A stretch of DNA of 64,000 bases from contig JAHJRQ010000002.1 of assembly GCA_018830485.1 (NCBI GenBank), positions 13,211-77,210 of the forward strand, written 5' to 3'. Below are positions 4,061 through 21,460 of this stretch, one piece after another. The translations under genes and the position numbers were made by a program. This DNA is from Pseudomonadota bacterium. GTDB taxonomy: Bacteria > Desulfobacterota > Desulfobulbia > Desulfobulbales > Desulfurivibrionaceae. Under the pieces are notes generated by a model. That model was not told where the DNA came from. It did not search any database and worked only from the letters and a program-made list of their open reading frames with translations. Each line of letters opens with the position of its first letter. Positions within the stretch are counted from its first letter, which is position 1.

Positions 4061-6973
4061 TCAATGGCTCTTGTAGAGCAGGGCCAAGGGGAAGAAGCGC
4101 AGCACATCGGAGACCGGCAGAACATCCTGGCTGCCCTGGCGGATGGGGTGGTGCATCTCCCCGGTGAAAATGTCGCGGTAGCTTTCGGCCGCAGCCTTGT
4201 CCGGCAGGGAGATGCAGGTTTGTCCCCACACCGTCTCGGCAACATCCGAGTAAGGTGCATCGTGGCCGGAGAGGAGCGAGGCAAAAAAACGGGGCGCCAC
4301 GGCAATGAGCTGTTCTTCCGCCAGGGAACGGGCCAGCACGCACAGATGGCGCCCGGCTTCGCCGTGGACAGCGAGCCCTTCGTAAGCGCCTTCGGCAAAG
4401 AGGGCGGGGTGCTTGCGGCGAAAATGCAGAGTACGGCTGGTGACAAAGAGCTTGGCCCGCCCATCCGCCAGAGTCGCCAGCAGGGAGGCCAGCGCCGGTC
4501 CTGACAGGGGTTCCTCCGCAAAGATGCCCGCCAGGTCGCCGAGCAGATGCTGGGCCTGGAGGAAATCCACGGGGTGCCGGTTGTCCGGATCAACCAGGCT
4601 GAAATCCCAGAGCTCGTTGCCCTGATAGATATCCGGCACCCCGGGGGATGTCAGCTTGAGGAGCAGTTGGGACAGGGAATTGAGCAGGCCGAAGCGGCTG
4701 ATTCCTTCGCAAAACTCCGAAAAATCGGCAAGAAAGAGGTTGTCCCGGCCCGGACGCAACACGCTCGTGACAAACGAGGCAAGGGCCTCCTCGTAGTCGG
4801 GATCGGGATTGAGCCAGGAGGAATGTTCCTTGGCCTCCCGCACCGCCTTGAGCATATAGGCGGTGATCCGCTCCCGATACCGGGCCAGTTCCTGTTCCGC
4901 CGGATGCGGGATGGGCCAGGTGCCCAGCAGGGTCTGGTAGAGATGGTATTCCTCGTTGCGGCTTGGCGCCGCATGCCCGCGCAGGCGCCGGGCATGGCGG
5001 CGGTTGTGCCGTTGCCAGCGCCTGACCCGCTGTTTCCAGAGGTCGGGAATTTCACTGAGAAGGTTGATGCGGGCGCGGACATCCTCGCTGCGTTTGCTGT
5101 CATGGGTCGAGGTGGCGAGCATGGCCCGGGGCCAGTGTTGCCGCCGGGCCTGGTTGGCCTGGTGAAAGGCTGTTCTGGACACGCTGAAGCGCCGCGGGTC
5201 GCCCCCCACCTCATTCAAGGAGAGCAGACGGCAATCCCGGTAGAAAAGTGTGTCCTCCTGAGCCTTGGCCATGACCGGCGCCGTGTACTGTTGAAATTTC
5301 ATGGCGAAGCGGGCCATCTTGCTCCGCATGCCCCGCCGGTTGCTGAAGATCCTTGCCAGCAGGAGGCAGTCGCGGACAAAATCGAAGATGGCCGGGTCGG
5401 TCATGGGATTGCGCTGCTTGGCGTCGGCCACGGCCCAGTCCACATAGCGGCGGTCTTCCTCGCTCACTTTTGCCGGGGTCACATAGGTTCGATATACCGG
5501 AAAGCAGGCCACCACCTCGGTGAGCGCTTCCCTGAGGCCGGTGAGGGTGAAATCGCGGCTCTGGAAATCCTGCTCGGCGATCTGGCGCAAGAGGTTGGCC
5601 AGCACCGCCAGTTCTCCGGCAAGCTGCGCCTTGATGATCAGTCGTTTTGCCGCATAGAGATTCTCTTCATATGCGCTGTCCCGGCCGGTGCAGAGCTGGT
5701 AGGCGCGGGTGAGGGGCTTTTCCCCTTCCGGGCTTACGAACAGGCCATTGAGCAGGCTGGCGAAGTCGTAGCCCGTGGTGCCGTGGATTGGCCACTCCTT
5801 GGGCAAGCCTTCATAAATGGCGAGGATCTTTTCCGCCACCAGATAAAAGGAGGGGAGCAGGCTGCCTTGCGTCACGGCCTGCGGCAGGCGGCGCCGGATT
5901 TCGGCGCTCAGCCGGTCATAATAAGCCTGGGGATTGAAGAGGCCGTCCGGATGGTCGATGCGCAGGCCCTGAAGGAATCCCTGCTCGACGAGGGAGAAGA
6001 GGAAGCGGTGGGTTGCGGCAAAGACCTCGGCCTCCTCCTGGCGAAGGCCGGCCAGGGTGTTGATGTTGAAAAAACGGCGGTAGTTGATCTCGTCCGTTGC
6101 CACCTTCCAGAAGGCGAGCCGGTAAGGCTGCTTTTCCAGGAGACGGTGCAGCAGGGCATATTTTTCTCCGGAATCTTTGGGAGCATTGAAGAGAGCCAGG
6201 CTGAAGGCCAGGGCCTCCTGGATGGTTTTTTCCCGGGCGAGCAGGGCAAGCTCCCCTTTGCCCGCGGCCTGCCGCTCCCGCCGTTCAGCCCGACGGCGCC
6301 GGCTTGCCGTCTGCCGGCCCGGCAGATGCCGGCAGACGGCAAGCAGTTGCTGCAAGCGGGCAAGAATCTCCGTCCCAGCATCATGGTGTTGCTTGAGAAA
6401 GGAAAGGGCCGGGCCGAGGATCTGGGGATAGGTTTTCGGATCAATGGGCAGCCGGTGCCCATAGTAATGCGCGGCAAACTCTCCCTGTTCCGCGGCAAAG
6501 GCGAGTTCGATTTCTCCGCGGCTTAGAATATTGCCATAATAATCGCCAAGAATGGGCAGCAGCACCTTGCCGGAAAAAATCCGGGCAGCCTGCGGGTGCC
6601 AATCGATATCGAAATAGGCGGCATACGGCGAAGCCGGGCCGTTTTCGAGAACATCGAGCCACCAGCCGTTGTCGCTGCCGCCGATCCCCATGTGGTTGGG
6701 CACGAAGTCGAGAATGAGCCCCATGTCGTGGGCGTGCAGGGTTTCCACAAAACTCCGGAATTCCTCCGCAGTGCCCAGCTCCGGGTTGAGGGCGTTGTGA
6801 TCGACGATGTCATAGCAGTGGCTGCTGCCGCTGCGGGCCTTGAGCAGCAGGGAGGCATAACAGTGGCTGATCCCCAAGGCATGCAAATAGGGGACGATGC
6901 GCTCGGCATCGGCAAAGGTGAACCCGCTGTTGAACTGGAGGCGGTAGGTGGCCAGGGGAAGGGGCGGGATCAT
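4061..6973 (-). CDS. treY: malto-oligosyltrehalose synthase
   Basis: 970 aa. N-terminus ATYRLQFN..FTF.DA..IVPYL..LGISH.Y.S..L.A..GS.H.YD..DH...NPELG is the TreY signature, and the size fits. Confidence 0.9.
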   Translation of the reverse strand: MIPPLPLATYRLQFNSGFTFADAERIVPYLHALGISHCYASLLLKARSGSSHCYDIVDHNALNPELGTAEEFRSFVETLHAHDMGLILDFVPNHMGIGGSDNGWWLDVLENGPASPYAAYFDIDWHPQAARIFSGKVLLPILGDYYGNILSRGEIELAFAAEQGEFAAHYYGHRLPIDPKTYPQILGPALSFLKQHHDAGTEILARLQQLLAVCRHLPGRQTASRRRRAERRERQAAGKGELALLAREKTIQEALAFSLALFNAPKDSGEKYALLHRLLEKQPYRLAFWKVATDEINYRRFFNINTLAGLRQEEAEVFAATHRFLFSLVEQGFLQGLRIDHPDGLFNPQAYYDRLSAEIRRRLPQAVTQGSLLPSFYLVAEKILAIYEGLPKEWPIHGTTGYDFASLLNGLFVSPEGEKPLTRAYQLCTGRDSAYEENLYAAKRLIIKAQLAGELAVLANLLRQIAEQDFQSRDFTLTGLREALTEVVACFPVYRTYVTPAKVSEEDRRYVDWAVADAKQRNPMTDPAIFDFVRDCLLLARIFSNRRGMRSKMARFAMKFQQYTAPVMAKAQEDTLFYRDCRLLSLNEVGGDPRRFSVSRTAFHQANQARRQHWPRAMLATSTHDSKRSEDVRARINLLSEIPDLWKQRVRRWQRHNRRHARRLRGHAAPSRNEEYHLYQTLLGTWPIPHPAEQELARYRERITAYMLKAVREAKEHSSWLNPDPDYEEALASFVTSVLRPGRDNLFLADFSEFCEGISRFGLLNSLSQLLLKLTSPGVPDIYQGNELWDFSLVDPDNRHPVDFLQAQHLLGDLAGIFAEEPLSGPALASLLATLADGRAKLFVTSRTLHFRRKHPALFAEGAYEGLAVHGEAGRHLCVLARSLAEEQLIAVAPRFFASLLSGHDAPYSDVAETVWGQTCISLPDKAAAESYRDIFTGEMHHPIRQGSQDVLPVSDVLRFFPLALLYKSH

Positions 6974-8832
6974 GGCCGGAGTCCTTTCGTCCGGGCCGGA
7001 GCAAGAAACCAGAAGACCGACCAGGGCGGCAGCGCGGTTTCCTGCTCGTTTTCCGGCAAGTCATGGCTGGCAAAGAGCGGCGGCAGCTCAGGGAGTCTGA
7101 GCGCTGCATCCGGCCGCGGGCCGAGATTAGCAAAGAGCAGCAGGCTCTCTCCGGTTTGCAGGGGCCAATGCACCGAAAGGCCGGCTTGTCCGAGGGGGTG
7201 CCAGAGATTTTTTCCGGGTTGCAGCGCCGGAATCCTGGGGATGATCTCCCTGTGGCGGAGACGGAGGAGTTGGCGATAATAGCCATGCCAGGCGGCGCCT
7301 TCGCTCGTGTCGAGCCCCCGCCAGTCGAGTCTGGCCGAGAGGACGGTCTCCGCCGCAGCCGGGTCCGGGATGCGGGCGCGGTTTTCCGGGGTGCTGAATT
7401 CCGGGAATCCGGCAAACTCCCGGCGCCTGCCTTCGGCAACCTGTGCGGCAAGGTCCGGGGAAAAATCGCAGAAAAAAGGGAAAGGCTGCCGGCTGCCCCA
7501 TTCCTCGCCCATGAAGAGCAGGGGCGGCGAGGGCGCCAGCAGGAGCAGGGCCAGGGCGCTTCGCAACGCTTCCGGATCGGCGAGCAGGCTGAGGCGCTCG
7601 CCCAGGGCGCGGTTGCCGACCTGATCGTGGTTTTGCAGAAAACCGATAAAGGCGGCGGCGGGCAGTGTGCGGCTTGGCTCGCCCCGGGGAGCGTTGTCCC
7701 GCCAGGGGGAGGCTTCGCCCTGATAGGCAAACCCCTCTGCCAGGCAGCGGGCTAAATGGCGGTTCGGCGCTTCGGCATAGTCACGGTAATAGCCGTGTTT
7801 TTCGCCGGTGAGGAGAACATGCAGGGAATGGTGCAGATCATCGTTCCATTGCGCCGTATAGCAGCGCGGGCTGCCGGAGCTGTCCCGTTCAAGATAGCGG
7901 CTCTGGTTGCGGTCGTTTTCCAGAATCAGGTGAATGTGGCGTTGCGGCGGGAAATGGGTTCGTACCGCCAAGGCTATTTCCTCTAGGATATCCGGCCTGT
8001 TTCGGTCGTGGATGGCGTGCACCGCATCGAGGCGCAGACCGTCGAAATGGTACTCGTTGAGCCAGTAGAGGGCGTTTTCGATAAAAAACCGGCGAACCCA
8101 GTAATTTTCGGGGCCGTCGAAGTTGATGGCCTCCCCCCAGGGGGTCTGGTAGCGATCGGTGAAAAACTGCGGGGCATAGCCATGCAGATAATTGCCCTCC
8201 GGACCGAAGTGGTTGTAGACCACATCGAGCAACACCATGAGGCCTCTGGCATGCGCCGCGGCAACCAGGCTTTTGAGATCCTCCGGCCGGCCGTAGCTTG
8301 CGGCGGGAGCAAAGGGGAGGACGCCGTCGTAGCCCCAGTCGCAACGGCCGGGAAAGGCGGCCACCGGCATCAGTTCGATAGCGGTGATCCCCAGTTCGGC
8401 CAGATGATCGAGGCGCTGTTCCACCTCGGCAAAGGTGCCTTGCGCGCTGAAACTGCCCACGTGCAGTTCGTAGAGCACCGCCTCCTCCCAGGGCCGGCCT
8501 GGCCAGGCGGGTTCAGGCCAGGGGAAATCGGCCGGGGCGATCACCTCGCTCGGCCCGTGCACGCCTTCGGGCTGAAAGCGGGAAGCCGGGTCAGGTACCA
8601 GCCGGCCGGAGGCGAGCTGAAAGCTGTAGCGGCTGCCTTGTCCGGCATCCGCCGTTTGCCGCTCAAACCAGCCCGATTCCAGGCGGAGCATGGGAAGAAA
8701 TTTCTTTTTCCCCCGGCAGTCAAGACAGAGGGAAATCTTTTCGCTTTCCGGGGCCCAGAGGCGGAAGCGCACCGCGCCGGAAGGCAGGAGCGCAGCCCCG
8801 AATGCCATCCGGTGCTCACGGCGTCTGGTCAT
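6970..8832 (-). CDS. treZ: malto-oligosyltrehalose trehalohydrolase
   Basis: GH13 motifs ([47 protein letters not shown]) behind an N-terminal E-set domain. An alternative start MAFGA at 8808 would remove the overlap with glgX. Confidence 0.9.
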
Positions 8833-10975
8833 GGCGATCCGTTTCCCGCCCCCCGGACTCCATCAGGAGAGCCAGGCTGCGGCCGAGCAGCGGGTAGCGG
8901 TCTTTGGCAGTCCAGAGCCGCTTTTCTCCGGGGCTGCCGTCCGAGCTTCCGGTGTCCAGCCGGACTCGCCAGCGGGTTACTGGAGCCAGGTCCGGGATGG
9001 TAAAGGGGATGGTTTCGTGATGGGCGTTCACCAGCAGGAGAAACCTGTTGTCCATGATGGGGTTGCCTTTGTCGTCCTCTTCTTCCAGACGGTCGCCGGC
9101 CAGGAAGAGCCCCAGGCAACGGGCAAAGGCATGTTGCCATTCCTCGTCGGTCATTTCCGTACCCGCCGGAGTCAACCAGATGATATCCCTGACACCGCCG
9201 CCTGTGATCAGGCGGCTTTGGAAAAAGTGGCGGCGATGGAAGACGGGATGCTTCTTGCGCAGGGCGATCAGAAAACGAACGAAATTCATCTGCTCATCCT
9301 GTTCGGCTGCCAGGGTCCAGTCCAGCCAGCTTAAGGGGTTGTCCTGGCAATAGGTGTTGTTGTTGCCCTGCTGGCTTCTGCCCATCTCGTCTCCGGCAAG
9401 GAGCATGGGCACCCCCTGGGAGAGGAAGAGGCTGGCGAGGAAGTTGCGTTTCTGGCGAGCCCGCAGCGCCTTGATCTGCGGGTCGGCGCTTGGCCCTTCG
9501 GCGCCGCAGTTCCAGCTGTGGTTGTTTGTCTCGCCGTCCCGGTTTTCTTCGAAATTCGCTTCGTTGTGTTTCTGGTTGTAGCTGACCAGATCGTGCAGGG
9601 TGAAGCCGTCATGGCAGGTGACGAAGTTGATGCTGGCATAGGGGCGCCTGCCCCCATGTTCGTAGAGATCGCTGGAGCCGGTGAGCCGGTAGGCCAACTC
9701 GCCGATCTTGCCGCCTTCCCCTTTCCAATAGGCGCGCACCGTATCCCGGTATTTGGCGTTCCATTCTGTCCAGCCCGGGGGGAAGTTGCCCACCTGATAG
9801 CCGCCTTCCCCGAGATCCCAAGGCTCGGCGATCAGCTTGACCTGGGAAAGCACCGGATCCTGGTGGATGATATCGAAAAAAGCCCCCAGCCGGTCCACCT
9901 CGTACAGCTCCCTGGCCAGAGCCGAGGCCAGATCGAAGCGGAAGCCGTCCACGTGCATCTCCAGGACCCAGTAGCGCAGGCTGTCCATGATCAGTTGCAG
10001 CACCCGGGGGTGGAGCATGTTCAGGGTGTTGCCGCAGCCGGTAAAATCCATATAGTGGCGCTGGTTCTCGGGCTCCAGGCGGTAATAGGCAAGGTTGTCG
10101 ATGCCTCGGAAGCAGAGGGTCGGACCCAGCTGATTGCCTTCGGCGGTATGATTGTAAACCACGTCGAGAATGACCTCGATGCCCGCCGAGTGCAGGGTTT
10201 TCACCATGGTTTTGAATTCGCTGATCTGACCGTAGGCTGAATAGCGGCTGTCCGGGACAAAGAAGCCGATGGAGTTGTAGCCCCAATAATTGCCGAGCCC
10301 TTTTTCCACCAGATGACGTTCATCGACAAAGGCATGCACCGGCATCAGTTCCACCGCCGTAATGCCCAGCCGTTTGAGGTGATCGATTGCCGGCGCCGAG
10401 GAGAGTCCGGCGTAAGTGCCGCGCAACTCCTTGGGGATCCGGGGGTGGAGGCAGGTAAAGCCTTTGAGGTGCAGTTCGTAGATGATGGTATTGTGCCAGG
10501 AGGTGTGGGGCGGCCGGTCATCGCCCCAGGTGAAGGCCGGATCGATCACCTGGCATTTGGGCATGAACGAGGCGCTGCTGCGCCGGTCGCAGGAAAGATC
10601 GGCCAGAGGGCTGCCGATCCGGTAGCCGAACAAGGCGTCATGCCAGCGGAGCTTGCCGGCTATCGCTTTGGCATACGGATCAAGGAGCAGCTTGGCCGGG
10701 TTGAAGCGCAATCCCCGTTTCGGGGCATAAATGCCATGGACCCGGTAGCCGTAAAGAAGGCCGGGCCGCGCTTCGGGCAGGTAACAGTGCCACACCTGGT
10801 CGGTTTGCCAGGCCAGGTTGATGCGCTCGACTTCCGTCCGGCCACGTCGATCAAAAAGGCAGAGCTCCACCCGGTCGGCATGTTCGGAAAAAATGGCGAA
10901 GTTTACTCCCTCGCCGTCCCAAGTGGCGCCGAGCGGGTATGGATTGCCTGGCCAGACCGCCATTTTTCGATGCAT
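8816..10975 (-). CDS. glgX: glycogen debranching enzyme (GlgX/TreX)
   Basis: 719 aa. [25 protein letters not shown] start, then GH13 motifs ([41 protein letters not shown]). Confidence 0.9.
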
Positions 10976-11006
10976 ATGGTCCCCTCGCCGTTGTTGTCGC
11001 GGCGGC

Positions 11007-12248
11007 TCAGTTCAGTTCTATGCGGTACTCGTCCTTGTGGCGCAGTCCGACCATGAGAGTGAGGTATTCGCGGAGATGCCTGGTCAAGAGGAAATTTTCC
11101 CGGGCATACTCCTTGCCTTTGATCCCCATCTCCTGCATCCGCGTTTTCTGCCGCAGGAGGTAGCGGATGCGCAGGGCCGCCCCTTCCGGGGTGTGCACCA
11201 GAAAACCGGTGTGGTAGTTGATGACCTGCAGCCGGATGCCGCCAGTGTCGCCGCCGATCACCGGCTTGCTCTTCCACATGGCCTCAGTAACCGTGAGCCC
11301 GAAACCCTCCTTGGTCGATTTTTGCAGGACGATATCCGCGGCCCGCTGCAGGGCGTTGATGGTGCGGTGGGCGTCCGGCGCCAGCAGAAGGATGTGGACA
11401 TCCGGATCGTTGTTTGCCATCTCCCGTGCCTCGGCGAGGACGATGTCCCCTTCCGGGTCGTCGCTGGCCCCGCCGCCGGCAAGAACCAGCTGCAGGCTGG
11501 GGATGAATTTTTTGGCCAGCCGGTAAGCCTGGATGACGCCCACCGGATCCTTGAAACGGTCGAAGCGGGAGACCTGCACCAGGAGGGGCCGGGCCGGATC
11601 AAGATCGAACTCGGCCCTGACGCGGTTCACCTCCTCTTGCGACAGCTCGATATTTTTGTCGCTCAAGGGATCGATGCTGGGCGGGATGATGTATTGCGGA
11701 TGCTGCAGCGGCTGGGCAAAGGCCGGCAGGGAGAAGATGCTGGCATCGTACCGGTCCACCATTTTGCGCAGATATTTCCACACCGGGCGGTAGGGGTGGC
11801 TGGCATCAATGTGGCAGCGCCAGACCCATTTCCCGCGACGGTTCGGACAATGGGCGAGAAGGCCGGCAGGTTGCGGGTCGTGGATAAAAACGAAATCCGC
11901 CTCGGAAAGTTTTTCCCGCAGGATTTCGGCGTTGGCTTCATTGGCCTGCTCGTAAGCGGCCAGAAGGGCGGCGTTGATTTGCACCCGGTTGCCTTGCAGT
12001 CCATTGTGCATGGACTTGGTGCACTGGTAGAATTCCTCTCCCCCGCTAATCACCTCCCAGCTGGTATCAAGACCCAGTTCGTTGGAAAGCGGCGCTAATT
12101 TTTCCAGAATCTCGGCCACCCCGCCTCCGATCCGGGTGGAGTTGACATGGACAACCTTTGTGCCGCGCAAGGATTCCGCCAGCTGACGGAGATGATCGAT
12201 AACATCGGGACCGGTTATGGCGGCATAGGATTCGAGCAGGCTGCTCAT
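11007..12248 (-). CDS. treT: trehalose glycosyltransferring synthase (TreT-type GT4)
   Basis: 413 aa. [52 protein letters not shown] and [18 protein letters not shown] match archaeal TreT sequences as I remember them. Confidence 0.75.
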
Positions 12249-12916
12249 GCAACACCTCCCGCGAAATAGGCGCTGAAAAGTTCGGCCAGCTCCTGGCGGA
12301 TCTGACTGAGGCTGGAAAAGAAGGGATCGATGGCGGCCAGCTTCGCACAGAGGTCCTGGTATTCCGCCCCGTAGCCGGTCAGCCAGAAACGGAAATCGTC
12401 GCTGCTTTCCGGCATCCGGCTGCGGGCATCGATGAAATGGTAGAAGATGCTGCTGGTGGACATCTTGGGGATCTGCTCGGCCAGGTCGGCGGGTTTTTCC
12501 AGACGGCGGTGGGTGTCAAAAACCACCAGTTGGCCGCGGAGGAACTCGAACTGCCTGGCCGCAGGCATCCAGTGTGCGTTTTCACTTTGCTCCAGACACT
12601 CTTCGATGATCTCCAGGAGTTCCTGCCGGATCGCCTCCACGTTTTCGGCCTCCCCGGGATCGATGGCGGCCAACCGTTCGGCCAGTTCGGGTTCGCGCAG
12701 GCTGTGGCGGACCCAGCCGGCGAAATCGTTGTGGAATTCGCGCTCCTCAAAGCGGGGGACCAGGAGGCCGCCCCAGAAATGGTGGTAGATGCTGGCCGTG
12801 TTGACCAACTGCAGATTGTCCCGCAGTTCGGCAAGATTTACGGCCTTCCGACCGGTGGCGATGGTGATTAGTGCGCAATCCTTGACGGCAAAGAAGAGGG
12901 CTTTTTCCTTTTCCAT
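12245..12916 (-). CDS. conserved hypothetical protein made of two tandem ~105-aa repeats (possibly DUF5752-like), translationally coupled to treT
   Basis: Start set at MEKEK (ATG 12916), preceded by AAGAGG. Its stop overlaps the treT ATG (ATGA). Both halves share S.SI(Y/F)(H/Y)HF ... DF..W ... L...LAAIDP ... IRQEL.E. Confidence 0.6.
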   Translation of the reverse strand: MEKEKALFFAVKDCALITIATGRKAVNLAELRDNLQLVNTASIYHHFWGGLLVPRFEEREFHNDFAGWVRHSLREPELAERLAAIDPGEAENVEAIRQELLEIIEECLEQSENAHWMPAARQFEFLRGQLVVFDTHRRLEKPADLAEQIPKMSTSSIFYHFIDARSRMPESSDDFRFWLTGYGAEYQDLCAKLAAIDPFFSSLSQIRQELAELFSAYFAGGVA

Positions 12917-13001
12917 AGTTGTGCCTCTTGTTGGGGTGGGCACTCACAAGTGGAGTGAAACGGAGGGGAAAATCGACTAGTTCCTTCTTCAGCACTTTTT
13001 T

Positions 13002-13172: not shown

Positions 13173-13208
13173 AAAAAAGGCCCTGCCGGAGATGGTTCCG
13201 GCAGGGCC
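13173..13208 (-). terminator. rho-independent terminator after the rhodanese gene
   Basis: 12-bp GC-rich stem GGCCCTGCCGGA/TCCGGCAGGGCC with a 6-nt loop, followed on the minus strand by TTTTTTAT. It lies about 55 nt after the stop at 13263. Confidence 0.8.
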
Positions 13209-13262
13209 TCGCACTGCAAAACAACTGCGGGGTAGCAGTTGTTTCTTAAGGAGCAGGGGGGA

Positions 13263-14582
13263 TTATTCGCTGATCACACAATCGCTTCCTGAGCATTCCA
13301 CATCGGAAAGCAGGAAGCGGCTCTTGAAGCCCGCTTTGTCCAGAGCGGCTCTGGCCATTTCCGCCCGGGCTCCGGTGGTGCAATGGATCAGTATCTCCTT
13401 GTCCTTGGGCAGTTCGCCGATCCGCTTTTCGATCTCATCCAGCGGAATGGTCAAGGCATTCTTGAAGGAGCATTCCTTCACTTCATCCTTGGTGCGGACA
13501 TCCAAGATCACTTGGTTGGAGCTGCCTTCCAATGCCTTTTTGAACTCGGCTGCGCTGACCTCGTTCTTGCCAAGTTTCCTGGTCCAGGAGATGGAGGCAG
13601 GGGTGTGGCCGGTGGCCAGCTTGTTGCCCTTGTTCGTCCAGGATGTAACCCCGCCCGGCCAGATGGAGCCGGATTTGACGCCCCATTTTTTCATTATGTC
13701 ATAGCCCTGCTGCGCCTCAAGAAATGAGTTGGCATAGACCACGACAGGGGCTTTGAGCGGGAGAGCGTCCTCCTTTGCGGCCAGAGAGGCCAGGGGGATG
13801 TTGTGCGCCCTAGGAATATGGCCCGCTTCGTATTCTTCCTTGGAGCGCAGATCCACCAGGACGATGTTGTCGGTTTTGACAAATTTTTCCGAGGCGGTGA
13901 CGCTCTTGCCGGCTTTTTTCCAGCCGGGGGTGCCTGCAAGGAATACGCGTACATCGGTGTGACCCATTTTTTTCGCCAGACCGGCGGATTTAGGGCTCAT
14001 GCCTCACGTGAAGCCCCCGCAATAGAAGATCAGGGTGGTCTTCTTCAGGCGGGCGTCGGCGGGCAGGTGGGCGTCGCCGGTTTCCATATGCACCGTGTCG
14101 GGAAGCGAGATGGCTGTGGGGATGTGTCCCTCGTGGTAGCGGGCGGCAGGACGGGAATCGATCAGCACATAATTGCCCTCTTCCGGGCCCATGGCAATGA
14201 GCTTGGCAAGCTCATCGACCTTCATCTCCGTTACTCCCGGCGGGAGAGTGGCGAGCTTGGGCTCGACGGAGGTGGCGAAGCGGTCAGCCCCGCGCAGTTC
14301 AAACTTGACGATCGCGGCCTCGCCTTCAACGGCGTGTTCCAGACCCTTGGTTGTGTCGTCGAATTTGAGGAATTCGTTCTTGCCCTTCACCTCGATGGAG
14401 ATGGTTTTGGCCTTGTTGGATTTGCCGGTGATCTTGCCGGTAAAGGCGTTGGCCTCCTGGGCTGCTGCCTGCGGGGCATGGCCGGCGGCAAAGGCCGGCG
14501 AGCCGGAAAGGCTCGGGCCGCCCGCGAGAAGCCCGGTAATGAGCAGGAACGGAATCCATCTGCGTAACGGTTTGTTGTGCAT
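13263..14582 (-). CDS. exported three-rhodanese-domain sulfurtransferase with an in-frame TGA (14004..14006), read here as candidate selenocysteine
   Basis: ATG 14582 is preceded by GGAGA, and the signal peptide is MHNKPLRRWIPFLLITGLLAGGPSLSGSPAFA. ORFs 14004..14870 and 13263..14000 share a frame and are separated only by TGA-GGC. The stop cuts rhodanese domain 1 inside its catalytic loop (LIFYCGGFT-TGA-GMSPKSAGLAKKMGH...GTPGWKKAG). Domain 2 lacks Cys. Domain 3 has the canonical HCTTGARA. Confidence 0.6.
13974..13986 (-). promoter_or_regulatory. SECIS-like hairpin apex downstream of the in-frame UGA
   Basis: The mRNA reads UGA GGC AUG AGC CCU AAA UCC GCC GGU CUG GCG. CGCC/GGCG forms a stem with a GGUCU loop. 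The GGUC starts 25 nt from the U of UGA, and a possible CCC...GGG lower stem flanks it. Confidence 0.4.
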
Positions 14583-14608: not shown

Positions 14609-15070
14609 TTATCCGGGTTGGTTCGTGGGGCATTCGGTACTGGGTATCTCTGGTTTCCTCCCTGGTTGGTGTCCGTCTTGTTGTTTCAGTCGGTCCAGAG
14701 CCTCTTGCACACTCCGGAGCAGGGTTGCCGGTTCGAATGGCTTGGTGATGCAGGCCAGGCAGCCGTGTTTTTTTAAGGCATCGCCCGTTGTCTCGCGGAT
14801 ATCTTCCGCCAGGACGAGATAGGGGATGGCAATGGCGCTTCCGGACAGGGCATGCATGAAGGCGGCGCATGCCTCCGGCGAGGCCGAATCGAGATCAACG
14901 ATCAGCAAATCAACGGGATCCCGGGTGCAGGCCAAGGTCTTGAGCAGCGCAACGGCTGCCTCCGTGTTTTCCGCAAGGCTGACGCGGTAGTCCGCCTGTT
15001 TGAGCATGAGGCCGAGGCTGTGCTGCAGATTGAGCCTGTTTTCCGTGAGAAGGATGTGTTGTGTGGCCAT
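14609..15070 (-). CDS. stand-alone response-regulator receiver domain protein (partly degenerate acidic pocket)
   Basis: Start set at MATQH (GGAG 4 nt upstream). LLIVDLD phospho-acceptor and KPF lysine are present. The N-terminal acidic pair is replaced by TE, and the conserved T/S position is Ala. Confidence 0.7.
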   Translation of the reverse strand: MATQHILLTENRLNLQHSLGLMLKQADYRVSLAENTEAAVALLKTLACTRDPVDLLIVDLDSASPEACAAFMHALSGSAIAIPYLVLAEDIRETTGDALKKHGCLACITKPFEPATLLRSVQEALDRLKQQDGHQPGRKPEIPSTECPTNQPG

Positions 15071-15135: not shown

Positions 15136-15150
15136 GCAAGATAAGTGCCA
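15136..15150 (-). promoter_or_regulatory. sigma-54 (-24/-12) promoter: TGGCAC-TTATC-TTGC
   Basis: The reverse complement of gcaagataagtgcca is TGGCACTTATCTTGC, with exact GG-N10-GC spacing. It lies about 65 nt upstream of the receiver gene start and directly downstream of a sigma-54 activator gene. Confidence 0.7.
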
Positions 15151-15299: not shown

Positions 15300-16721
15300 T
15301 CACTCACCCCGGTCCGCCTGTTTGAGTCGCCAGTTGAGGGCCTGACGGGTAATGCCGAGCATCTCCGCGGCAATGGCCTGATTGCCGTTGGCCCGGTTCA
15401 GCGCCTCCAGCACCAGGAGGTAGCTCGCCTCCTTGATGGAGGGGAGATGCGGGAGATCGGCAAACGGGGTCCTGGTTTCCGGGTGTTTTTTGACCTCCTC
15501 TTCCAGGTTGGGTCTTCTGAGCCGGAGGTAGTCCTTGAAGGCATCCATGGACAGGGTGCGATTCTTGTGGGTGCTCATGGCGTCAAAGACCATGTTCTGG
15601 AGCTCCCGGATATTGCCGGGGAAATCATAGGTGCCCAGCAGGGTGATCAGCTCCTTGGGAAAGCCTGGTTTTTTCTTATTGAGCCGGACCGCACCCTCCT
15701 CGAAGAAATGATCGACCAGCAGGGGCAGGTCGTCGAGCCTTTCCCTTAAGGGAGGGATATGGATGCGGTGGGCATGGAGCCGGTAGTAGAGGTCCTTGCG
15801 GAAACCGCCGTTTTCCTGCATCTCCTGGAGGTTCTGGTGGGTGGCGAAGATCATCCGGCAATCGGTGCGTTTGGGGATGTCCGAACCCAGGGGCAAAAAC
15901 TCCCGCTCCTGAAGGAGGCGGAGCAGCTTGGTTTGCGAAAGCTGGGAAAGGTCGCCGATTTCATCCAAAAACAGGGTGCCCCCCGCGGCCTGCTCGATGA
16001 GCCCCCTCCGGGTCTGGTCCGCCCCGGTGAAGGCCCCCTTCTTGTGGCCGAACAGCGTGTCGGAGAACATGGTGTCGTCGAGGCCCGCCACATTGACCGG
16101 GACAAACTCGCCTTTGCGGTTGCTCAACACATGCAGGGCCTGGGCGATGAGCTCCTTGCCCACCCCGGTTTCGCCGGAGATCAGCACCGGCTCGCTGGTG
16201 TCGGCAATGGATTCCATGTACTGAAAGATGGAGCGCATCCTCTTGTTGTGGGTGGTGATCCGGCTGAAGGCCTCGGGGCGGTCCAGCTTGTCCTTGAGGA
16301 AATGTTCCTTGAGCAGGTCGTTTTCCTGGCGCAACCGGCTCAGGTCGACGGCCCGTCGCACCCCGGCAATGAGGCGGGTCTCCTCGCTGACCTTGGTGTA
16401 GTAGTCGAAGGCCCCGAGTTTCATGCACCGCACCGCGGTGTCCACCAGATCGAGGCCGGTGATGATGATCACCGGGATCTGCGGGTGCTCGCGCACGATC
16501 CGGGGCAGCAATTCTTCTCCCGGAAGGTGGGGCATGGTGAGATCCAGGACGATCACCCCGATCTCCTCGTTGGCCAAAATCTCCATGACCTTGCTGCTGT
16601 CGGCGCAGCAGCGGATATTGCTCAAGCCCACGGAGCGCAGGGTCAGGCTGAAGCTGTGCAGCCAGGCCTCTTCATCGTCAACCAGCAGGATGGGCCGAAC
16701 CGGGGAGAGCTGTTTATCCAT
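15300..16721 (-). CDS. sigma-54-dependent response regulator (NtrC family: REC + AAA+ + Fis-type HTH)
   Basis: 473 aa. ILLVDDE...VLDL.MP receiver, Walker A GETGVGKE, GAFTGA sigma-54 contact loop, FLDEIGDL, RLN and R-finger region, and a C-terminal GNQ..AA.MLGI.RQAL..RLK HTH. Confidence 0.92.
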   Translation of the reverse strand: MDKQLSPVRPILLVDDEEAWLHSFSLTLRSVGLSNIRCCADSSKVMEILANEEIGVIVLDLTMPHLPGEELLPRIVREHPQIPVIIITGLDLVDTAVRCMKLGAFDYYTKVSEETRLIAGVRRAVDLSRLRQENDLLKEHFLKDKLDRPEAFSRITTHNKRMRSIFQYMESIADTSEPVLISGETGVGKELIAQALHVLSNRKGEFVPVNVAGLDDTMFSDTLFGHKKGAFTGADQTRRGLIEQAAGGTLFLDEIGDLSQLSQTKLLRLLQEREFLPLGSDIPKRTDCRMIFATHQNLQEMQENGGFRKDLYYRLHAHRIHIPPLRERLDDLPLLVDHFFEEGAVRLNKKKPGFPKELITLLGTYDFPGNIRELQNMVFDAMSTHKNRTLSMDAFKDYLRLRRPNLEEEVKKHPETRTPFADLPHLPSIKEASYLLVLEALNRANGNQAIAAEMLGITRQALNWRLKQADRGE

Positions 16722-16800: not shown

Positions 16801-19140
16801 TCACCCGGCTTTGGGGGGGGGCGGTGCCGATGCTTTCTCCCGCCAGACCGGAAAGGAGAGAGTCGCGGTGGTGCCTGCTTCCGGGCTTGAGGCAAAGCGC
16901 AGTCTGCCCTGGTGCTCCTTGATGATCCCGGCGGAAACCGAGAGGCCGAGGCCGGTGCCGCCATATGAACGCTTGGTGGTGAAGAAGGGGTCGGTTATCT
17001 GATTGATGATCTCTTGGGCGATGCCGGTGCCCTGATCGTGGACGCGCACCTCCACTTCGTCGTTGTCCGCGTCATGGCGGGAGGCGATGGATATGGCCGC
17101 CTCCGGATTGGTCAGGGCCTCGCAACTGTTCTGAATCAGGTTGATCAGTACCTGCTCCAGCCGCTGCCTGTTGCCCCGGATGGGCGGCAGGTTGGGTGCC
17201 AGATCGGTGCTGAATTTCCGGGTGGCGTTTTTGATTTTGTTGTGGTTGAGGCGCACCGCCGCTTTGGCGATCTCGTTGATCTCCACCGGTTCCATGTGGC
17301 GGCTGGTGTCCTGGCGGGCGTAATCCTTGAGATCATGGACAATATTCTTGATCCGCCGGGCGCTTTCCTCCAGTTCGAGGAAAAGGCGGGGGATCTGCTC
17401 GCACATCTCGCTGTATTGCAGCCCGGCAATGAGAAAGTCGCCGTGTTCGCGGTAGTATTCGTCGAGGATCGGCTTGGCGCTTTCCCAGGCCTTGAAGAGC
17501 ATGGAGGTGTTCAGCATGGCGATGCTGTTGGGGTTGTTGATCTCATGGGCCACCCCGGAGATGAGCACCCCCAGCGAGATCATCTTGTCCGCCTGGACCA
17601 ACTGCTGCTGCTGGAGCCTGGTTTCATCCTCGGCCCGCCTGCGTTCGGTGATGTCCCGGATGATCCAGATGGAGTTCCACTTATCCTTGATCCGGGCCTC
17701 GGAAAGCGAAAGCTCGATGGGCAGTTCCGAACCGTCCTTGCGTCTGGTGATCAGCTCGATGGTTTCGCGGATGGGCCCGTCGCTCATCGGCTTATCCGCG
17801 ACGGCGTCCCGCTGGCCGTATTCGGAAAGACGCGGGGAAATCAGGGTGTGGATCGGCTTGCCCAGGGCCTCGGCGGCGGAAAAGCCGAAGATCTCGGCGG
17901 CGGCCTCGTTCCAGTAGGAAATATTGCCGTGGTGGTCCATCATGGCGATGGCGTCCTGGGCGGAGGCGGTGAGGTTTCTGAACTTGTCCTCGCTCTGGCG
18001 CAGGTCGGCTTCCGCCTCCTGCTGCCGGGTGCGGGTGATCGCATAGCGGCTGGCCAGGGTGGTGAGCTCCTCGGCCAGGTTGACCACCTCGCGGGGGCCG
18101 GTCCAATTGAATTGCACGTTTTCCTGCCCCTTGTTCAGAATGGAGTCCAGGCCGGTGAGGATGGCGTCCTTGATCCGGTCGATTTTTTGGGCGATGGCGT
18201 TGGCAATGAGCGAAACGATGACCGCGATGGTGATTACGATCCCGACGATGTTATAAATCAGGGAAAGCTTCCATTCCCTGGCCGCGCTGCGATCCACCGG
18301 CGTGCCCAGCCACAGGGCCGGGGGAAGATTGTCGTTGAAAATGAGCGGCAGCCAGATAAGGCTTTGGCCGGAGCCGTTCTCCCAGACAAAGGGGCGGTTC
18401 TCCGCAAGATGGGAGGCAAGATCGGGGAAAAGGGCAAGGAGGTCGGCGCCGGGAGTGACCGGGTGCATCGGCTCCAGATCGGGAAAGGTGGCCGGGGCAT
18501 GGACAATGATGCCAGCGGGCGTTACCCGGCAGGCATCGACATGGGCATCGAGTAACAGATCCGGGGCAAGATCCAGGATGAGCACCCCGGCCGCGCCGTC
18601 CTCCGTTCCGGGAATCGGGGTCGCAAGACTCAGGCGGTTGGCGGCGGGATCGGCCTGATCCCCGGTCAGGAGCGTGTCGACCTCGGATGTTTTAAGCGCC
18701 AGCCCTTTCTGGAGGAGCTGGGATTGTGCTTCGGCATGTGCCGCTTCGGTGGGGGCGGCTTCCAGGGAATCGCTGTTTCTGCGGAGAGAAATCAGTTGGT
18801 TGCCCGAGGGATCGAGCAGACGAACGCCGAGGATCATCTTTTCCGTGTTCAACTGCCCCCGGAGCAACTCTGCAAGCCGTTGGCGACCGGCAGGGTCCAG
18901 GGAGGAGGGGGTGAGCCCGGCGCTCAAGGGGGTGGCGGCTGCCTGGAGGAGGCTTTTTTTGATGCATTTCACCCTGGCATTGAGGGAAACAAAGCTGCTT
19001 TCGGCAGCGGCGGCGGTCCGTTTTGTCTCCACTGTTTCGTGCTGGTTGATGTGGGCGCGGAGATTGACTCCCACCAGGCTGAGGATGGGCAGGATGCCAA
19101 GGGCAAGGAGGATGATGAAGATGATGGTCCGCAGTTTCAT
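16801..19140 (-). CDS. sensor histidine kinase (TM - ~300-aa extracytoplasmic domain - TM/HAMP - PAS - HisKA - HATPase)
   Basis: Start set at MKLRTIIFIILLALGILPIL. A second TM segment lies around LIYNIVGIVITIAVIVSLIANAI. PAS region (FRNLTASAQDAIAMMDHHGNISYWNEAA), H-box GVAHEINNP, N/G boxes (LINLIQNS, DQGTGI, GGTGLGLS). Confidence 0.85.
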   Translation of the reverse strand: MKLRTIIFIILLALGILPILSLVGVNLRAHINQHETVETKRTAAAAESSFVSLNARVKCIKKSLLQAAATPLSAGLTPSSLDPAGRQRLAELLRGQLNTEKMILGVRLLDPSGNQLISLRRNSDSLEAAPTEAAHAEAQSQLLQKGLALKTSEVDTLLTGDQADPAANRLSLATPIPGTEDGAAGVLILDLAPDLLLDAHVDACRVTPAGIIVHAPATFPDLEPMHPVTPGADLLALFPDLASHLAENRPFVWENGSGQSLIWLPLIFNDNLPPALWLGTPVDRSAAREWKLSLIYNIVGIVITIAVIVSLIANAIAQKIDRIKDAILTGLDSILNKGQENVQFNWTGPREVVNLAEELTTLASRYAITRTRQQEAEADLRQSEDKFRNLTASAQDAIAMMDHHGNISYWNEAAAEIFGFSAAEALGKPIHTLISPRLSEYGQRDAVADKPMSDGPIRETIELITRRKDGSELPIELSLSEARIKDKWNSIWIIRDITERRRAEDETRLQQQQLVQADKMISLGVLISGVAHEINNPNSIAMLNTSMLFKAWESAKPILDEYYREHGDFLIAGLQYSEMCEQIPRLFLELEESARRIKNIVHDLKDYARQDTSRHMEPVEINEIAKAAVRLNHNKIKNATRKFSTDLAPNLPPIRGNRQRLEQVLINLIQNSCEALTNPEAAISIASRHDADNDEVEVRVHDQGTGIAQEIINQITDPFFTTKRSYGGTGLGLSVSAGIIKEHQGRLRFASSPEAGTTATLSFPVWREKASAPPPPKAG

Positions 19141-19232
19141 GGGAGGCCTTGGCTCTGGTTTTTGTTGCGTAACGGGCGTTGCCCTGTTTTTCTGAGAGAA
19201 AGCGAGGCATTCTTCAACGGAGGGATAGTAGC

Positions 19233-19493
19233 ATGAAAGACATTTTGATTGCAATCACCGGGGCGGACCTTGATTTTGAAACGGCCCGGAGCATGGCGAA
19301 AATCATTGCCCGGCAAGAGAACGCTGAAACCGATTGCCTGGCCTGGTCCGATGCGCGCCGGCAAAGCCATTCTCCGGGCTGCGTGCAGTGCGAGATCAAG
19401 GGGAAGCCGGGATGGGAGGTGTATGGCGAGAATCATGGCGGGCGGCTGAAGATCATCTTCAACGACAGGGAATATGTGTTCATCCATAGCTAG
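19233..19493 (+). CDS. small conserved hypothetical protein (86 aa) with a CxxC motif
   Basis: ATG 19233 is preceded by GGAGGGA. It is followed by a clean terminator and is divergent from the kinase gene. I recognise no family. Confidence 0.45.
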   Translation: MKDILIAITGADLDFETARSMAKIIARQENAETDCLAWSDARRQSHSPGCVQCEIKGKPGWEVYGENHGGRLKIIFNDREYVFIHS

Positions 19494-19606: not shown

Positions 19607-21460
19607 TTATAGTCCCCGTCCGGTTCCTGCTTCCAACATATCCCCCAGCCCCCGGCGGAAGAGGATTCGCTTCGCTTCCCAGGGCGCCTCCGCAAAGGTC
19701 ATCCCTCTGCCGAGTCCTTTGTCTTCGAGCCGGTAGCACCAGAAGCCGTTGGCAACCCGCATGACTCGGCTGATTTCCCGCGGGAGCAGTTGGGCAAGCT
19801 CCTGATCCTGGGGATCGAGCAGGTCGAGAAAACGGGGGGCAAGCAGGCCGCCCAAGGTTTTGCTGCTGTCCTGGGACAGCTCTTCAGCCACCGCGGCCAG
19901 CTCTTCCCCGGCCAGCAGCCTTTGCCGGGCTTTTTCACAGACGACTTCCTGCTCCTGCCAGCGGGCGGGGCTGTCCATGGGACTGGCGTAGCGGAAAATA
20001 CCGCCCAGGGTGAGGCGCTCCGGCACAGTGATCAGGCCGTTTTTCAGTTGGTTGAGGGTTTTGGGGATGCTGTGTTGCCGGGCGTGATCATACTCCTGCA
20101 AGCGCAAGGCCAGTTTGGCCTCCAGGCCCTTTTGGGGGGGAAATCCGCCCAGAGCCTTGCAGGCGATGCTTTTCAGGGCAGACATGTTCGGGGGGAGAAG
20201 TTCGGGCGGGGCGGAGGCAAGGAGTTTTGTATCGCCCGGCTCGGCTTTGCGGACAGGAGACAGGCGGGGAGCCCGCACCGCCTCGGCCCCGGCCAAAGCA
20301 GCATTTTTTTTCAGGAGATGCCCCAGGCTGAAGAGGGCGACCCCCTCATAGCCGTTTTCTCCGGCGATCCGCGCCTCCCTGCCGAGCTGGGCGGAGTTTT
20401 TGCCTAAAGCGCCCAGTCCGGCCCAGAGGCTGACCTGTGAGGGACGGGGGGTGGTCGCGGTAATCTCCCGGAGCTGGGCGTTCACCCGTTCGGCATCCCC
20501 GAAATAGGCCATTGGATACAGTCTGTCCACCAGCCCCTCCGCGGCCCAGGCCTGGTATTCCTGGCCGTTTTCCAGATAGGCGGCCGCGGGCTCGGGAAAG
20601 ACGGCAACGGAAAGGACTATCCCGGTTGCGCCGCTGTGGTCTACAGCCTGCCGGACCTCCCGAAGAAGCTGGGTGACCTGGCCTGCGCGGAACTCGTTCC
20701 AGAACAGCGCTGCCGTGGTAAGGACCCGGTCCGTTGGCGACTGTTTCCCTTCAAGCCAGTCGGTTACGGTTCCAGCGTGGATTCGCTCCGGCAGAAGCCT
20801 GGGGTCAACTCCATGGGATCGTTCAAATTGTTCGGCAAGCGGGTCGCTTTTCCCGTAGCCCGGGCCAGGGTAGCGGATGAAGTCAAGATGGATGCCGGCC
20901 ACGGGGTAACGGGCCAGCAATTCCCGGACCACTGCGACGAACAGGGCGCGGTATTCCGCGGAAGCCGGGTCGGCATAGCTGCCTTCGATCCAGCCCAGCC
21001 GTTTTTCCCGGGCGGAATAGCCGGAAACCGGCCGCCCGGTGTTGTCGGAGAGGATCCAGGGCTGGCCGGGGTGTCCGGGGTGGTCCGGGGATTCCGGCGG
21101 GGTGTCGCCGCCCCAGAGATAAAAAACATTGAGCCATGCATGGAGGGACAGGGGAGCGCACTCCGTGAGCAACTGCGCCAGGGGGTCGAAATCCGTTGGG
21201 GCCTGGGCCAGATTCCCGGCCCGAGGCGCGAGCTCGCTTCGGTACAGGGCGTCGGCCCGCCCCCGGACCTGCACCAGCAGGTGGTCAAGCCCTGCCTGCT
21301 TCGCCTGCGGGCAGAGGGCGGCAATCTTCGCCGGGCTGTCCAGATCGAAACGGACCACCCAGGCCGCGGTCCGCAGCCTTGGGGCGCAGGCCGAGACAAG
21401 CAGCAGCAGGGCCAGGGCTGGAAGCAGGGCGCGCAGGGAACAGGGTTGTGGTTGTGGCAT
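19607..21460 (-). CDS. lipoprotein: glycoside-hydrolase-like GHL10 (DUF187/YngK-like) domain fused to a C-terminal parvulin-type PPIase-like domain
   Basis: Lipobox LLLVSAC. The N-terminal 350 aa carry VQVRGRADALY.S, LHAW.NVF and IHLDFIRYP, typical of GHL10. The C-terminal ~100 aa show the parvulin pattern (L.AGE.LA.VA...SQD..S...GG.L......L..EIS.V......W). Confidence 0.65.
   Translation of the reverse strand: MPQPQPCSLRALLPALALLLLVSACAPRLRTAAWVVRFDLDSPAKIAALCPQAKQAGLDHLLVQVRGRADALYRSELAPRAGNLAQAPTDFDPLAQLLTECAPLSLHAWLNVFYLWGGDTPPESPDHPGHPGQPWILSDNTGRPVSGYSAREKRLGWIEGSYADPASAEYRALFVAVVRELLARYPVAGIHLDFIRYPGPGYGKSDPLAEQFERSHGVDPRLLPERIHAGTVTDWLEGKQSPTDRVLTTAALFWNEFRAGQVTQLLREVRQAVDHSGATGIVLSVAVFPEPAAAYLENGQEYQAWAAEGLVDRLYPMAYFGDAERVNAQLREITATTPRPSQVSLWAGLGALGKNSAQLGREARIAGENGYEGVALFSLGHLLKKNAALAGAEAVRAPRLSPVRKAEPGDTKLLASAPPELLPPNMSALKSIACKALGGFPPQKGLEAKLALRLQEYDHARQHSIPKTLNQLKNGLITVPERLTLGGIFRYASPMDSPARWQEQEVVCEKARQRLLAGEELAAVAEELSQDSSKTLGGLLAPRFLDLLDPQDQELAQLLPREISRVMRVANGFWCYRLEDKGLGRGMTFAEAPWEAKRILFRRGLGDMLEAGTGRGL

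Follow-up and report, generated by a model that had tools for sequence, protein, structure and literature searches.

Rhodanese-domain selenoproteins have been predicted since 2004, and a review of 2026 lists five forms of them (PMC13188914; see also PMC9312934), namely UxxS, UxxG, CxU (NF041203, 'LYCAU'), a second UxxG form and the UxxxxU form of TsoB (NF045694) (PMC13188914). Two further systems are close in setting: the periplasmic multihaem selenoenzyme MccSep, through which Geobacter sulfurreducens reduces polysulfide (PMC13510729), and three-rhodanese sulfurtransferases secreted by Desulfurivibrio dismutans, for which, together with YeeE, a role in carrying polysulfide sulfur was proposed (PMC12142623). 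Here we describe a gene for a protein with three rhodanese domains (tri-rhodanese) and one in-frame UGA codon, located on a stretch of 64,000 nucleotides (nt), hereafter the window, from a Pseudomonadota bacterium of the GTDB family Desulfurivibrionaceae (assembly GCA_018830485.1, contig JAHJRQ010000002.1, positions 13,211 to 77,210). An earlier reading of this DNA made from its letters (the sequence-only reading) had suggested a selenocysteine (Sec) residue at the UGA and had stated, correctly, that rhodanese proteins are among the listed bacterial selenoprotein families (PMC13188914, PMC9312934). With rhodanese selenoproteins already catalogued, the tri-rhodanese is a new, unannotated member of this group.

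The tri-rhodanese selenoprotein gene (13263..14582), which like all of its parts and its upstream regulatory genes lies on the minus strand, runs from an ATG at 14582 to a TAA at 13265..13263, and its sole interruption is a TGA at 14006..14004, followed by GGC and by an ATG at 14000. The two same-frame open reading frames (ORFs) split by this TGA and one Gly codon were found with the flanking peptides given in the sequence-only reading: the upstream half ends with KKTTLIFYCGGFT (...LIFYCGGFT) and the downstream half begins with GMSPKSAGLAKKMGH. When the UGA is read through, the 439 codons before the TAA yield a product of 439 amino acids (aa) with the UGA as residue 193, next to 438-443 aa for full-length homologues of the Cys type. 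The PF00581 profile detected three rhodanese stretches in the read-through protein (E=4e-43, 146 bits vs a gathering score of 22.2), and the best of these, residues 134-224, spans residue 193. The UGA therefore cuts one rhodanese domain, which bears out the claim that the stop falls within the active-site loop of a single fold. Other UGA-split ORFs within the 64-kb window were off-frame noise or adjacent genes only.

A homologue search of a collection of 5.8 billion proteins gave 1362 matches, and the best 120 of these were examined. Full-length homologues accounted for 98 of them, most with 423-456 aa, and all 98 carried Cys in the UGA column within the motif F-Y-C-G-G-x-T-C-G-[ML]-S. The remaining 22 were proteins of 244-247 aa that start at the Met just past this column. 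Within the same 120 matches the full-length proteins reached at most 74% identity to the window protein and were all of the Cys type, and Sec-type relatives with 75-99% identity occurred as fragments only. We fetched the DNA for the 22 short proteins and for genome relatives and found TGA at the identical codon in 15 other loci or genomes (63-87% protein identity), TGC in seven, and TAA or TAG in none. Three of the loci with TGA come from isolates, namely Thiovibrio frasassiensis (GCA_029607905.1), Thiovibrio sp. JS02 (GCA_053485635.1) and Hydrosulfovibrio ferrireducens (CB1MN); one of the proteins, P0081 ('245-aa'), was a short gene call on a TGC gene and no UGA form. TGA at the same codon was also present on 113 metagenome contigs, and the TGA forms span 33-99% identity. 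The UGA/Cys column was invariant in a family alignment of 51 sequences. The comparison of homologues that the sequence-only reading had proposed thus showed Cys or TGA at the aligned column throughout, and none of the homologues compared ended naturally at CGGFT as a finished protein. When the domain 1 fragment of the window protein was searched exhaustively against 1.84 billion cluster representatives, 83 of the nearest 148 clusters ran on with C-x4-C and 40 ended exactly four residues past the Cys.

A neighbour-joining tree of the close clade suggested one gain of Sec from Cys and one reversion; we do not rely on this scenario, since Sec forms down to 33% identity indicate a history broader than this. 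The final stop codons of the Sec-type genes (L001-L135) were TAA in 47, TAG in 19 and TGA in six cases, and never TGA in the close clade.

Downstream of the UGA and within the coding sequence lies a hairpin, CGCC-GGUCU-GGCG (13974..13986), resembling a selenocysteine insertion sequence (SECIS) and recognizable by conservation, pairing and covariation. It covers nt 21-33 counted from the U of the UGA, so that the stem starts 18 nt and the loop 21 nt after the UGA, and in some relatives the stem is lengthened by up to 3 pairs. Every close-clade Sec-type gene has CC GCC GGT CTG GCG at nt 20-33, whereas Cys-type orthologues use other synonymous codons there (e.g. TCG GCG GGC ATG GCC) with which the stem cannot form. 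Over the 364 codons aligned for 15 distinct Sec-type genes, the entropy at third positions was lowest gene-wide at codons +5 to +13 (0.09 vs a mean of 0.92), and the longest invariant run of the whole gene was the 14-nt string CCGCCGGTCTGGCG. Six Cys-type genes showed no dip at the hairpin site (0.47-0.62 vs a mean of 0.54). A second invariant run, AAAATGGG (13963-13970, minus strand; UGA +37 to +44), follows the hairpin on its 3' side in Sec-type genes of the close clade, with an A-rich spacer in between, and was not conserved in the wider sample. A larger lower stem pairing CCC with GGG around AAAATGGG was judged by eye not to be kept in clade B and was dropped.

No covariation was found in a first alignment of 13 sequences, in which the hairpin was invariant. 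An invariant hairpin cannot show covariation, and therefore an unbiased metagenome sample was taken by scanning for the pattern C-G-G-x-T-UGA-G-M-S only, which leaves out the hairpin and requires an ATG after the UGA. The 113 metagenome contigs together with the earlier loci gave 90 distinct family sequences. The 4-bp core was paired in all 360 of 360 cells, which upholds the CGCC/GGCG stem with GGUCU loop noticed in the sequence-only reading. The outer pair was C-G in 87, U-A in two and A-U in one sequence, and the loop-closing pair was C-G in 84, A-U in four, G-C in one and U-G in one. The covariation score was 0.101 compared to 0.041 +/- 0.009 in shuffles, none of 500 shuffles reached it, and sliding the partner register by 1-3 columns left only 30-52% pairing. 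Both covarying pairs join synonymous third positions (codon +6 with +10 and codon +7 with +9), and the constraint thus acts on the RNA and not on the protein. The loop was GGUCU in most sequences, with GGUCA and AGGUU as variants. A hairpin equally far from the UGA also occurs in more divergent Sec-type subfamilies, with CCGCC-AGGAA-GGCGG in L136 and GGCC-8 nt-GGCC in L138.

The best-known bacterial counterpart is the SECIS of E. coli fdhF, a structure of roughly 40 nt with a bulged U. As in fdhF, the hairpin of the window lies just past the UGA within the coding sequence and presents an apical GGUC followed by U, with GGU CUG in the same codon phase. The fdhF string used for this comparison matches E. 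coli at 100%, and GGU CUG occupies codons +7/+8 in fdhF and +8/+9 in the window, as the sequence-only reading had stated. Unlike in fdhF, the loop is 3 nt further from the UGA and the conserved stem has 4 bp (up to 7 in some relatives). Reportedly, bSECISearch looks for a G, typically GU, in the apical loop and for a loop at about 16-37 nt from the UGA, and the window hairpin has a GGUCU loop 21 nt after the UGA. Taken from comparative sequence data, the downstream hairpin appears to be a minimal but well-supported SECIS.

The UGA thus stands opposite Cys in homologues, is retained under selection, and goes together with a structured element that is specific to UGA forms. We consider it very probable that the gene encodes one exported protein of 439 residues in which the UGA at 14004..14006 is decoded as selenocysteine, residue 193, via SelB and the SECIS. 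Several points weigh against this reading. The hairpin is minimal, with a consensus fold of only -6.4 kcal/mol; its two middle stem pairs are fixed by Ala codons, so that only two pairs are informative, and compensatory changes occur in only about eight of the 90 sequences. The fold of the single downstream RNA was unremarkable (z=+0.76), and the evidence for a SECIS is therefore comparative and not thermodynamic; of the folding check proposed in the sequence-only reading, the comparative side held up through covariation and the single-sequence side did not. No Rfam family was found around the site, at the gathering score or at E<=10, a result that says little as bacterial SECIS are evidently not covered by Rfam. 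The 64-kb window contains no tRNA and no homologue of E. coli SelA, SelB or SelD, and because it represents only this part of the genome the lack of sel genes there is uninformative. The genes downstream of the tri-rhodanese gene in the window are trehalose and glycogen genes (DUF5752, TreT, amylases) and not sulfur genes. Finally, the support is comparative throughout, and we infer export, substrates and the chemistry of the Cys-Sec pair from sequence, from an orthologue model and from the gene neighbourhood.

The search for sel genes covered the window and roughly 1 Mb of fetched loci. Its sole match was a SelA equivalog (TIGR00474, 625 bits vs a cut-off of 268) on a contig that also carries a Sec-type copy (L047), about 2.5 kb past the end of that gene. 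This selA (3393-4904 of L047) is split from the Sec-type tri-rhodanese and YeeE genes by a tRNA-His gene; selB does not follow it on that contig, the next genes being gmhA-like and encoding a GSU2086-family protein. For Desulfurivibrio alkaliphilus, of the nearest named genus, 13 selenoproteins are listed (PMC5029168 supplement).

We regard it as very unlikely that the UGA is read without selenium, either by near-cognate insertion of Trp or Cys or through a lineage-specific reassignment of UGA. Low-level read-through of UGA is common in bacteria and no Sec machinery was seen in the 64-kb window, but such read-through has no need of a hairpin that is conserved, covaries, lies at the distance of a SECIS and has GGU in its loop. 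UGA is also an ordinary stop in these organisms, with six of 72 complete Sec-type genes ending in TGA. The residue opposite the UGA is without exception Cys, the usual counterpart of Sec, and a relative encodes SelA on the same contig as its Sec-type gene (L047).

A truly split gene has an even smaller chance of being correct. Translation would stop at the UGA and restart at the ATG four bases on, and two polypeptides would assemble one rhodanese domain. This ATG, one codon past the UGA in the window and in close relatives, is preceded by GAGG, and gene callers predict a 245-aa product from it. The GAGG is however just 1 nt from the ATG, and the Met is also present in Cys-type genes, hence a plain residue of the protein; in the divergent Sec-type relative L138 it is replaced by Leu (TTG). 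Only the first polypeptide would have a signal peptide, which would place the halves of a single fold in different compartments. In addition, the stop is always TGA and always aligned with an invariant Cys.

There is next to no probability that the gene is a pseudogene, i.e. an ordinary Cys-type tri-rhodanese gene inactivated by a nonsense mutation from TGC to TGA. In favour of a pseudogene, one base separates the TGA from the TGC of Cys-type orthologues and annotation pipelines call two fragments. However, identity to the window protein is alike in the N-terminal half (61-97%) and in the C-terminal half (63-84%), without frameshifts or further stops, and equal conservation of both halves is incompatible with decay after a nonsense mutation. 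The same TGA in 15 genomes and on 113 metagenome contigs, across 33-99% identity, does not represent one recent clonal lineage, and the downstream hairpin is conserved in TGA forms only. The sequence-only reading had set a recoded gene against a pseudogene, and Cys in 98 of 98 full-length homologues, TGA in many genomes and the covarying hairpin decide for the former. Negligible, lastly, is a sequencing or assembly error at 14004..14006, for which nothing speaks beyond the general possibility and which is excluded because the junction TTCACG TGA GGC ATG is base-identical in the independent public NCBI assembly GCA_018820705.1 and the exact downstream ORF is present on five contigs, the same codon moreover being TGA in many other species.

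Read as a selenoprotein, the tri-rhodanese resembles the catalogued rhodanese selenoproteins in having Sec in or next to the active-site loop, and these too are computational predictions in anaerobes, especially Desulfobacterota. It differs from them in architecture, as it combines a signal peptide, a beta domain and three rhodanese domains. The two Sec residues of TsoB are spaced as C188 and U193 of the window protein, and the TsoB model aligns to residues 123-232; unlike TsoB, the window protein has no DsbD fusion or membrane domain, has one UGA, and has Cys at the first position. It scored 46 bits against the NF045694 cut-off of 805, in domain 1 only. Against LYCAU (NF041203) it scored 52.5 bits vs 115, with the match on domain 3 and not on the Sec domain, and its motif is C-x4-U instead of C-x-U. 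These scores are below the curated NCBIfam cut-offs, and the protein is therefore not a member of the TsoB or LYCAU families. In the UxxG forms Sec seems, judging by the motif, to replace the catalytic Cys, whereas the window protein keeps this Cys and has Sec at +5. The U-G-M-S of the window protein fits the motif of form 1 (UxxS; WP_010941598.1 of Geobacter sulfurreducens), and by motif alone the tri-rhodanese possibly belongs to this form.

The architecture was examined on an AlphaFold model of a Cys orthologue (P0002, 74% identical to the window protein), built on the 51-sequence family alignment. The model has a mean predicted local distance difference test (pLDDT) score of 87 and comprises an N-terminal helix, a disordered linker, a five-stranded beta domain and three rhodanese domains. 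Residues 1-32 (14487..14582) are predicted to form a signal peptide with a basic N-end, a hydrophobic core and an AxA site with cleavage after A-F-A, and the N-termini are conserved in all orthologues. At this end the model shows a helix at 7-20 followed by a low-confidence linker, and the N-terminus of the window protein contains neither a lipobox nor a conserved twin arginine. On the basis of the N-terminal sequence and its conservation the tri-rhodanese appears to be exported and periplasmic. An N-terminal all-beta domain follows at approximately residues 45-108 (14259..14450), with five strands in the model and no Pfam match. The UGA-truncated N-fragment of one relative bears the JGI name 'Cu/Ag efflux protein CusF', a hint at a fold like that of CusF or the oligonucleotide/oligosaccharide-binding (OB) type for this domain.

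Rhodanese domain 1 (approximately residues 118-227; 13902..14231) was delimited by the Pfam match at 134-224 and the model and contains C188-G-G-F-T-U193. The codon of Cys188 (14019..14021), five residues before Sec193, is at the canonical catalytic position and is invariant in 51 of 51 sequences. In the P0002 model C187 ends the central strand and is followed by the loop C-G-G-P-T-C-G, with a helix beginning at 194. This geometry, in which the central strand ends in Cys and gives way to a loop of six residues and then to a helix, is that of the rhodanese fold. According to the model, Sec193 closes the canonical six-residue active-site loop begun by C188, with the helix directly after it, and the proposal in the sequence-only reading of 'U-GMSPK-S' as a loop of its own is not compatible with this position. 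Rhodanese domain 2 (approximately residues 228-325; 13608..13901), recognized by Pfam and in the model, has no active-site Cys and no conserved Cys column. Rhodanese domain 3 (approximately residues 338-426; 13305..13571) has the canonical motif C401-T-T-G-A-R, and the domain layout given in the sequence-only reading, with a Cys-less second and a canonical third rhodanese, is therefore retained. Invariant in the 51-sequence alignment were C188, G189, G190, C/U193, C401, G404 and R406. A C-terminal pair, C430-x4-C435 (13278..13295), is conserved in 41 and 46 of the 51 sequences, respectively, and is situated on a beta hairpin (model strands 426-430 and 433-437). It could serve the Cys-Sec site as a mobile pair with a resolving or relay function.

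The best fold matches of the tri-rhodanese model were EanB, 1yt8 and YnjE, at 15-20% identity. E. coli YnjE (PDB 2wlr, 3ipo) and the D. dismutans three-rhodanese proteins (PMC12142623) share with it a signal peptide, three rhodanese domains of which not all are catalytic, and a proposed role as periplasmic carriers of sulfane sulfur. For the YnjE-type matches identity is only 15-18% and the global TM-scores are low, the D. dismutans proteins are likened to the window protein by domain content alone, and neither is reported to use Sec or a C-x4-C loop.

Upstream of the tri-rhodanese gene and co-transcribed with it is a gene for a lone response-regulator receiver (14609..15070; Pfam Response_reg), which is kept upstream in most close relatives. 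The sole exact match to the sigma-54 promoter element TGGCAC-N5-TTGC in the 64-kb window (15136..15150) lies approximately 65 nt before the receiver ATG. Of 23 loci, 21 have this element at a constant position, and in loci without the receiver gene it is located directly ahead of the rhodanese gene. Next follow an NtrC-type sigma-54 activator with receiver, AAA+ and HTH_8 domains by Pfam (15300..16721), which is 77-96% identical and syntenic in relatives, and a PAS histidine kinase by Pfam (16801..19254), likewise syntenic. The locus thus has a -24 GG / -12 GC element together with an adjacent NtrC-type activator, as in a sigma-54 transcription unit, in support of the sigma-54 control that the sequence-only reading had suspected. 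These sequence features support a conserved sigma-54 promoter as the origin of transcription of the tri-rhodanese gene, which has a PAS kinase and an NtrC-type regulator of its own next to it. The order kinase, activator, receiver, rhodanese is common to the Sec-type and Cys-type genes of the Desulfurivibrionaceae/Thiovibrio clade. The gene is followed by a strong intrinsic terminator with a 14-bp stem and a T run, recognized in the sequence (13177..13210).

Upstream of the kinase, a GHL10 glycosyl-hydrolase-like gene (window 19607-21460) is conserved, in most relatives along with a small DUF5619 gene, and both may belong to the same conserved neighbourhood. The genes downstream of the tri-rhodanese gene vary between relatives. 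In the window, DUF5752, the TreT trehalose synthase and three alpha-amylase/CBM48 genes (4061-12943, minus strand) stand between the rhodanese gene and a PfkB-YicC-RemA-Gmk-SpoU string, which in relatives comes straight after the rhodanese gene or behind other inserted genes. DUF5752 and TreT are also found behind the Cys-type gene in L013. In Thiovibrio sp. JS02 an extra 242-aa rhodanese, a methyl-accepting chemotaxis protein and a MauE-family gene are located directly downstream of the Sec-type gene (L003, 7013-9781).

Distant Sec-type lineages (33-56% identity) showed a recurrent string of MvhD, two HdrA-like proteins, an HdrC-like ferredoxin, an HdrB-like CCG protein, DsrE, the tri-rhodanese, YeeE/YedE and a disulfide oxidoreductase. 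In 35 loci the gene next upstream was that of DsrE, and in 30 the gene next downstream was of the YeeE/YedE type (Pfam Sulf_transp in L130), counts that are limited mainly by the length of the contigs. In the cluster of L130 (14-10655), and also in L025, L070, L095 and L099, a 103-aa ORF without Pfam match lies between the two HdrA-like genes and the HdrC-like gene, and clusters of this type are accompanied by a divergent PAS sigma-54 activator. The L130-type cluster looks like a dedicated module for sulfur import with an Hdr-like complex. The neighbourhood of DsrE, YeeE and Hdr-like genes thus links the tri-rhodanese to trafficking of sulfane sulfur across the inner membrane, and, by analogy, matches the role proposed for the three-rhodanese proteins and YeeE of D. 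dismutans.

Based on these features a mechanism can be proposed for the Sec-containing protein. The tri-rhodanese would be exported by the Sec pathway into the periplasm, where the Cys188/Sec193 pair might open S-S bonds of polysulfide, elemental sulfur (S8) or thiosulfate. The selenolate, being more acidic and more nucleophilic than a thiol, would act together with C188, and sulfane sulfur might be held as a persulfide, a selenopersulfide or a bridged S-S(n)-Se species. It could then be passed to Cys401 of domain 3, perhaps with the help of the C430/C435 pair, and onward to membrane or periplasmic acceptors, e.g. YeeE/YedE-type transporters or a polysulfide reductase. Expression from the sigma-54 promoter would be under the control of the neighbouring PAS histidine kinase and of the NtrC-type regulator. 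In an alternative, reductase-like cycle, Sec would attack the C188 persulfide, sulfide would be released, and the selenenylsulfide formed would be re-reduced; the evidence cannot distinguish this cycle from the relay. For MccSep, too, a periplasmic Sec was proposed to act with Cys on polysulfide S-S bonds in a member of the Desulfobacterota, and its gene is likewise a UGA-split ORF pair with a short downstream hairpin (PMC13510729). MccSep has a pentahaem cytochrome c fold with redox catalysis on haem, unlike the tri-rhodanese, and the analogy is one of chemistry and setting only. A more far-reaching proposal, which we put forward tentatively and consider unlikely as a whole, is that the C-x4-U loop defines a distinct, redox-active, selenenylsulfide-forming rhodanese. 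In the periplasm this rhodanese would attack zero-valent sulfur of low reactivity (S8 or polysulfide) and channel it via YeeE and DsrE to an Hdr-like complex. It would thereby supply the missing step at which sulfur is activated and enters the disproportionation and oxidation of elemental sulfur in Desulfobacterota, and the C-terminal Cys pair would serve as a mobile resolving arm comparable to that of thioredoxin reductase.

Public sources carry no selenoprotein annotation for the Sec-type members, and clusters of the truncated fragments are named 'hypothetical', 'rhodanese-like' or even 'CusF'. Gene calls in RefSeq, JGI, ENA and Logan consist of fragments of approximately 192 aa and 245 aa, or of the latter only, which means that a widespread gene is systematically mis-annotated; among the nearest protein clusters, roughly one in three is such a truncation. 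As a consequence, the real protein escapes proteomic and comparative work on sulfur disproportionators. For a minimal bacterial SECIS the family also provides a natural experiment of unusual clarity: in Sec-type genes the 13-nt hairpin is held constant at synonymous sites, whereas it has decayed in the Cys-type genes examined, which are close relatives. Recoding as such is no surprise in a selenoprotein-rich lineage; the gene is a good target for experiments because the family is broad and systematically mis-annotated, shows a clean SECIS signal and is linked to DsrE, YeeE and Hdr-like genes. The Sec residue would place a Cys/Sec pair in the active-site cradle of a putatively periplasmic sulfurtransferase that is genetically linked to these genes. 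This fits the recent finding of periplasmic selenium chemistry driving polysulfide reduction by MccSep (PMC13510729) and makes the tri-rhodanese a concrete candidate for the mobilisation of zero-valent sulfur by these bacteria.

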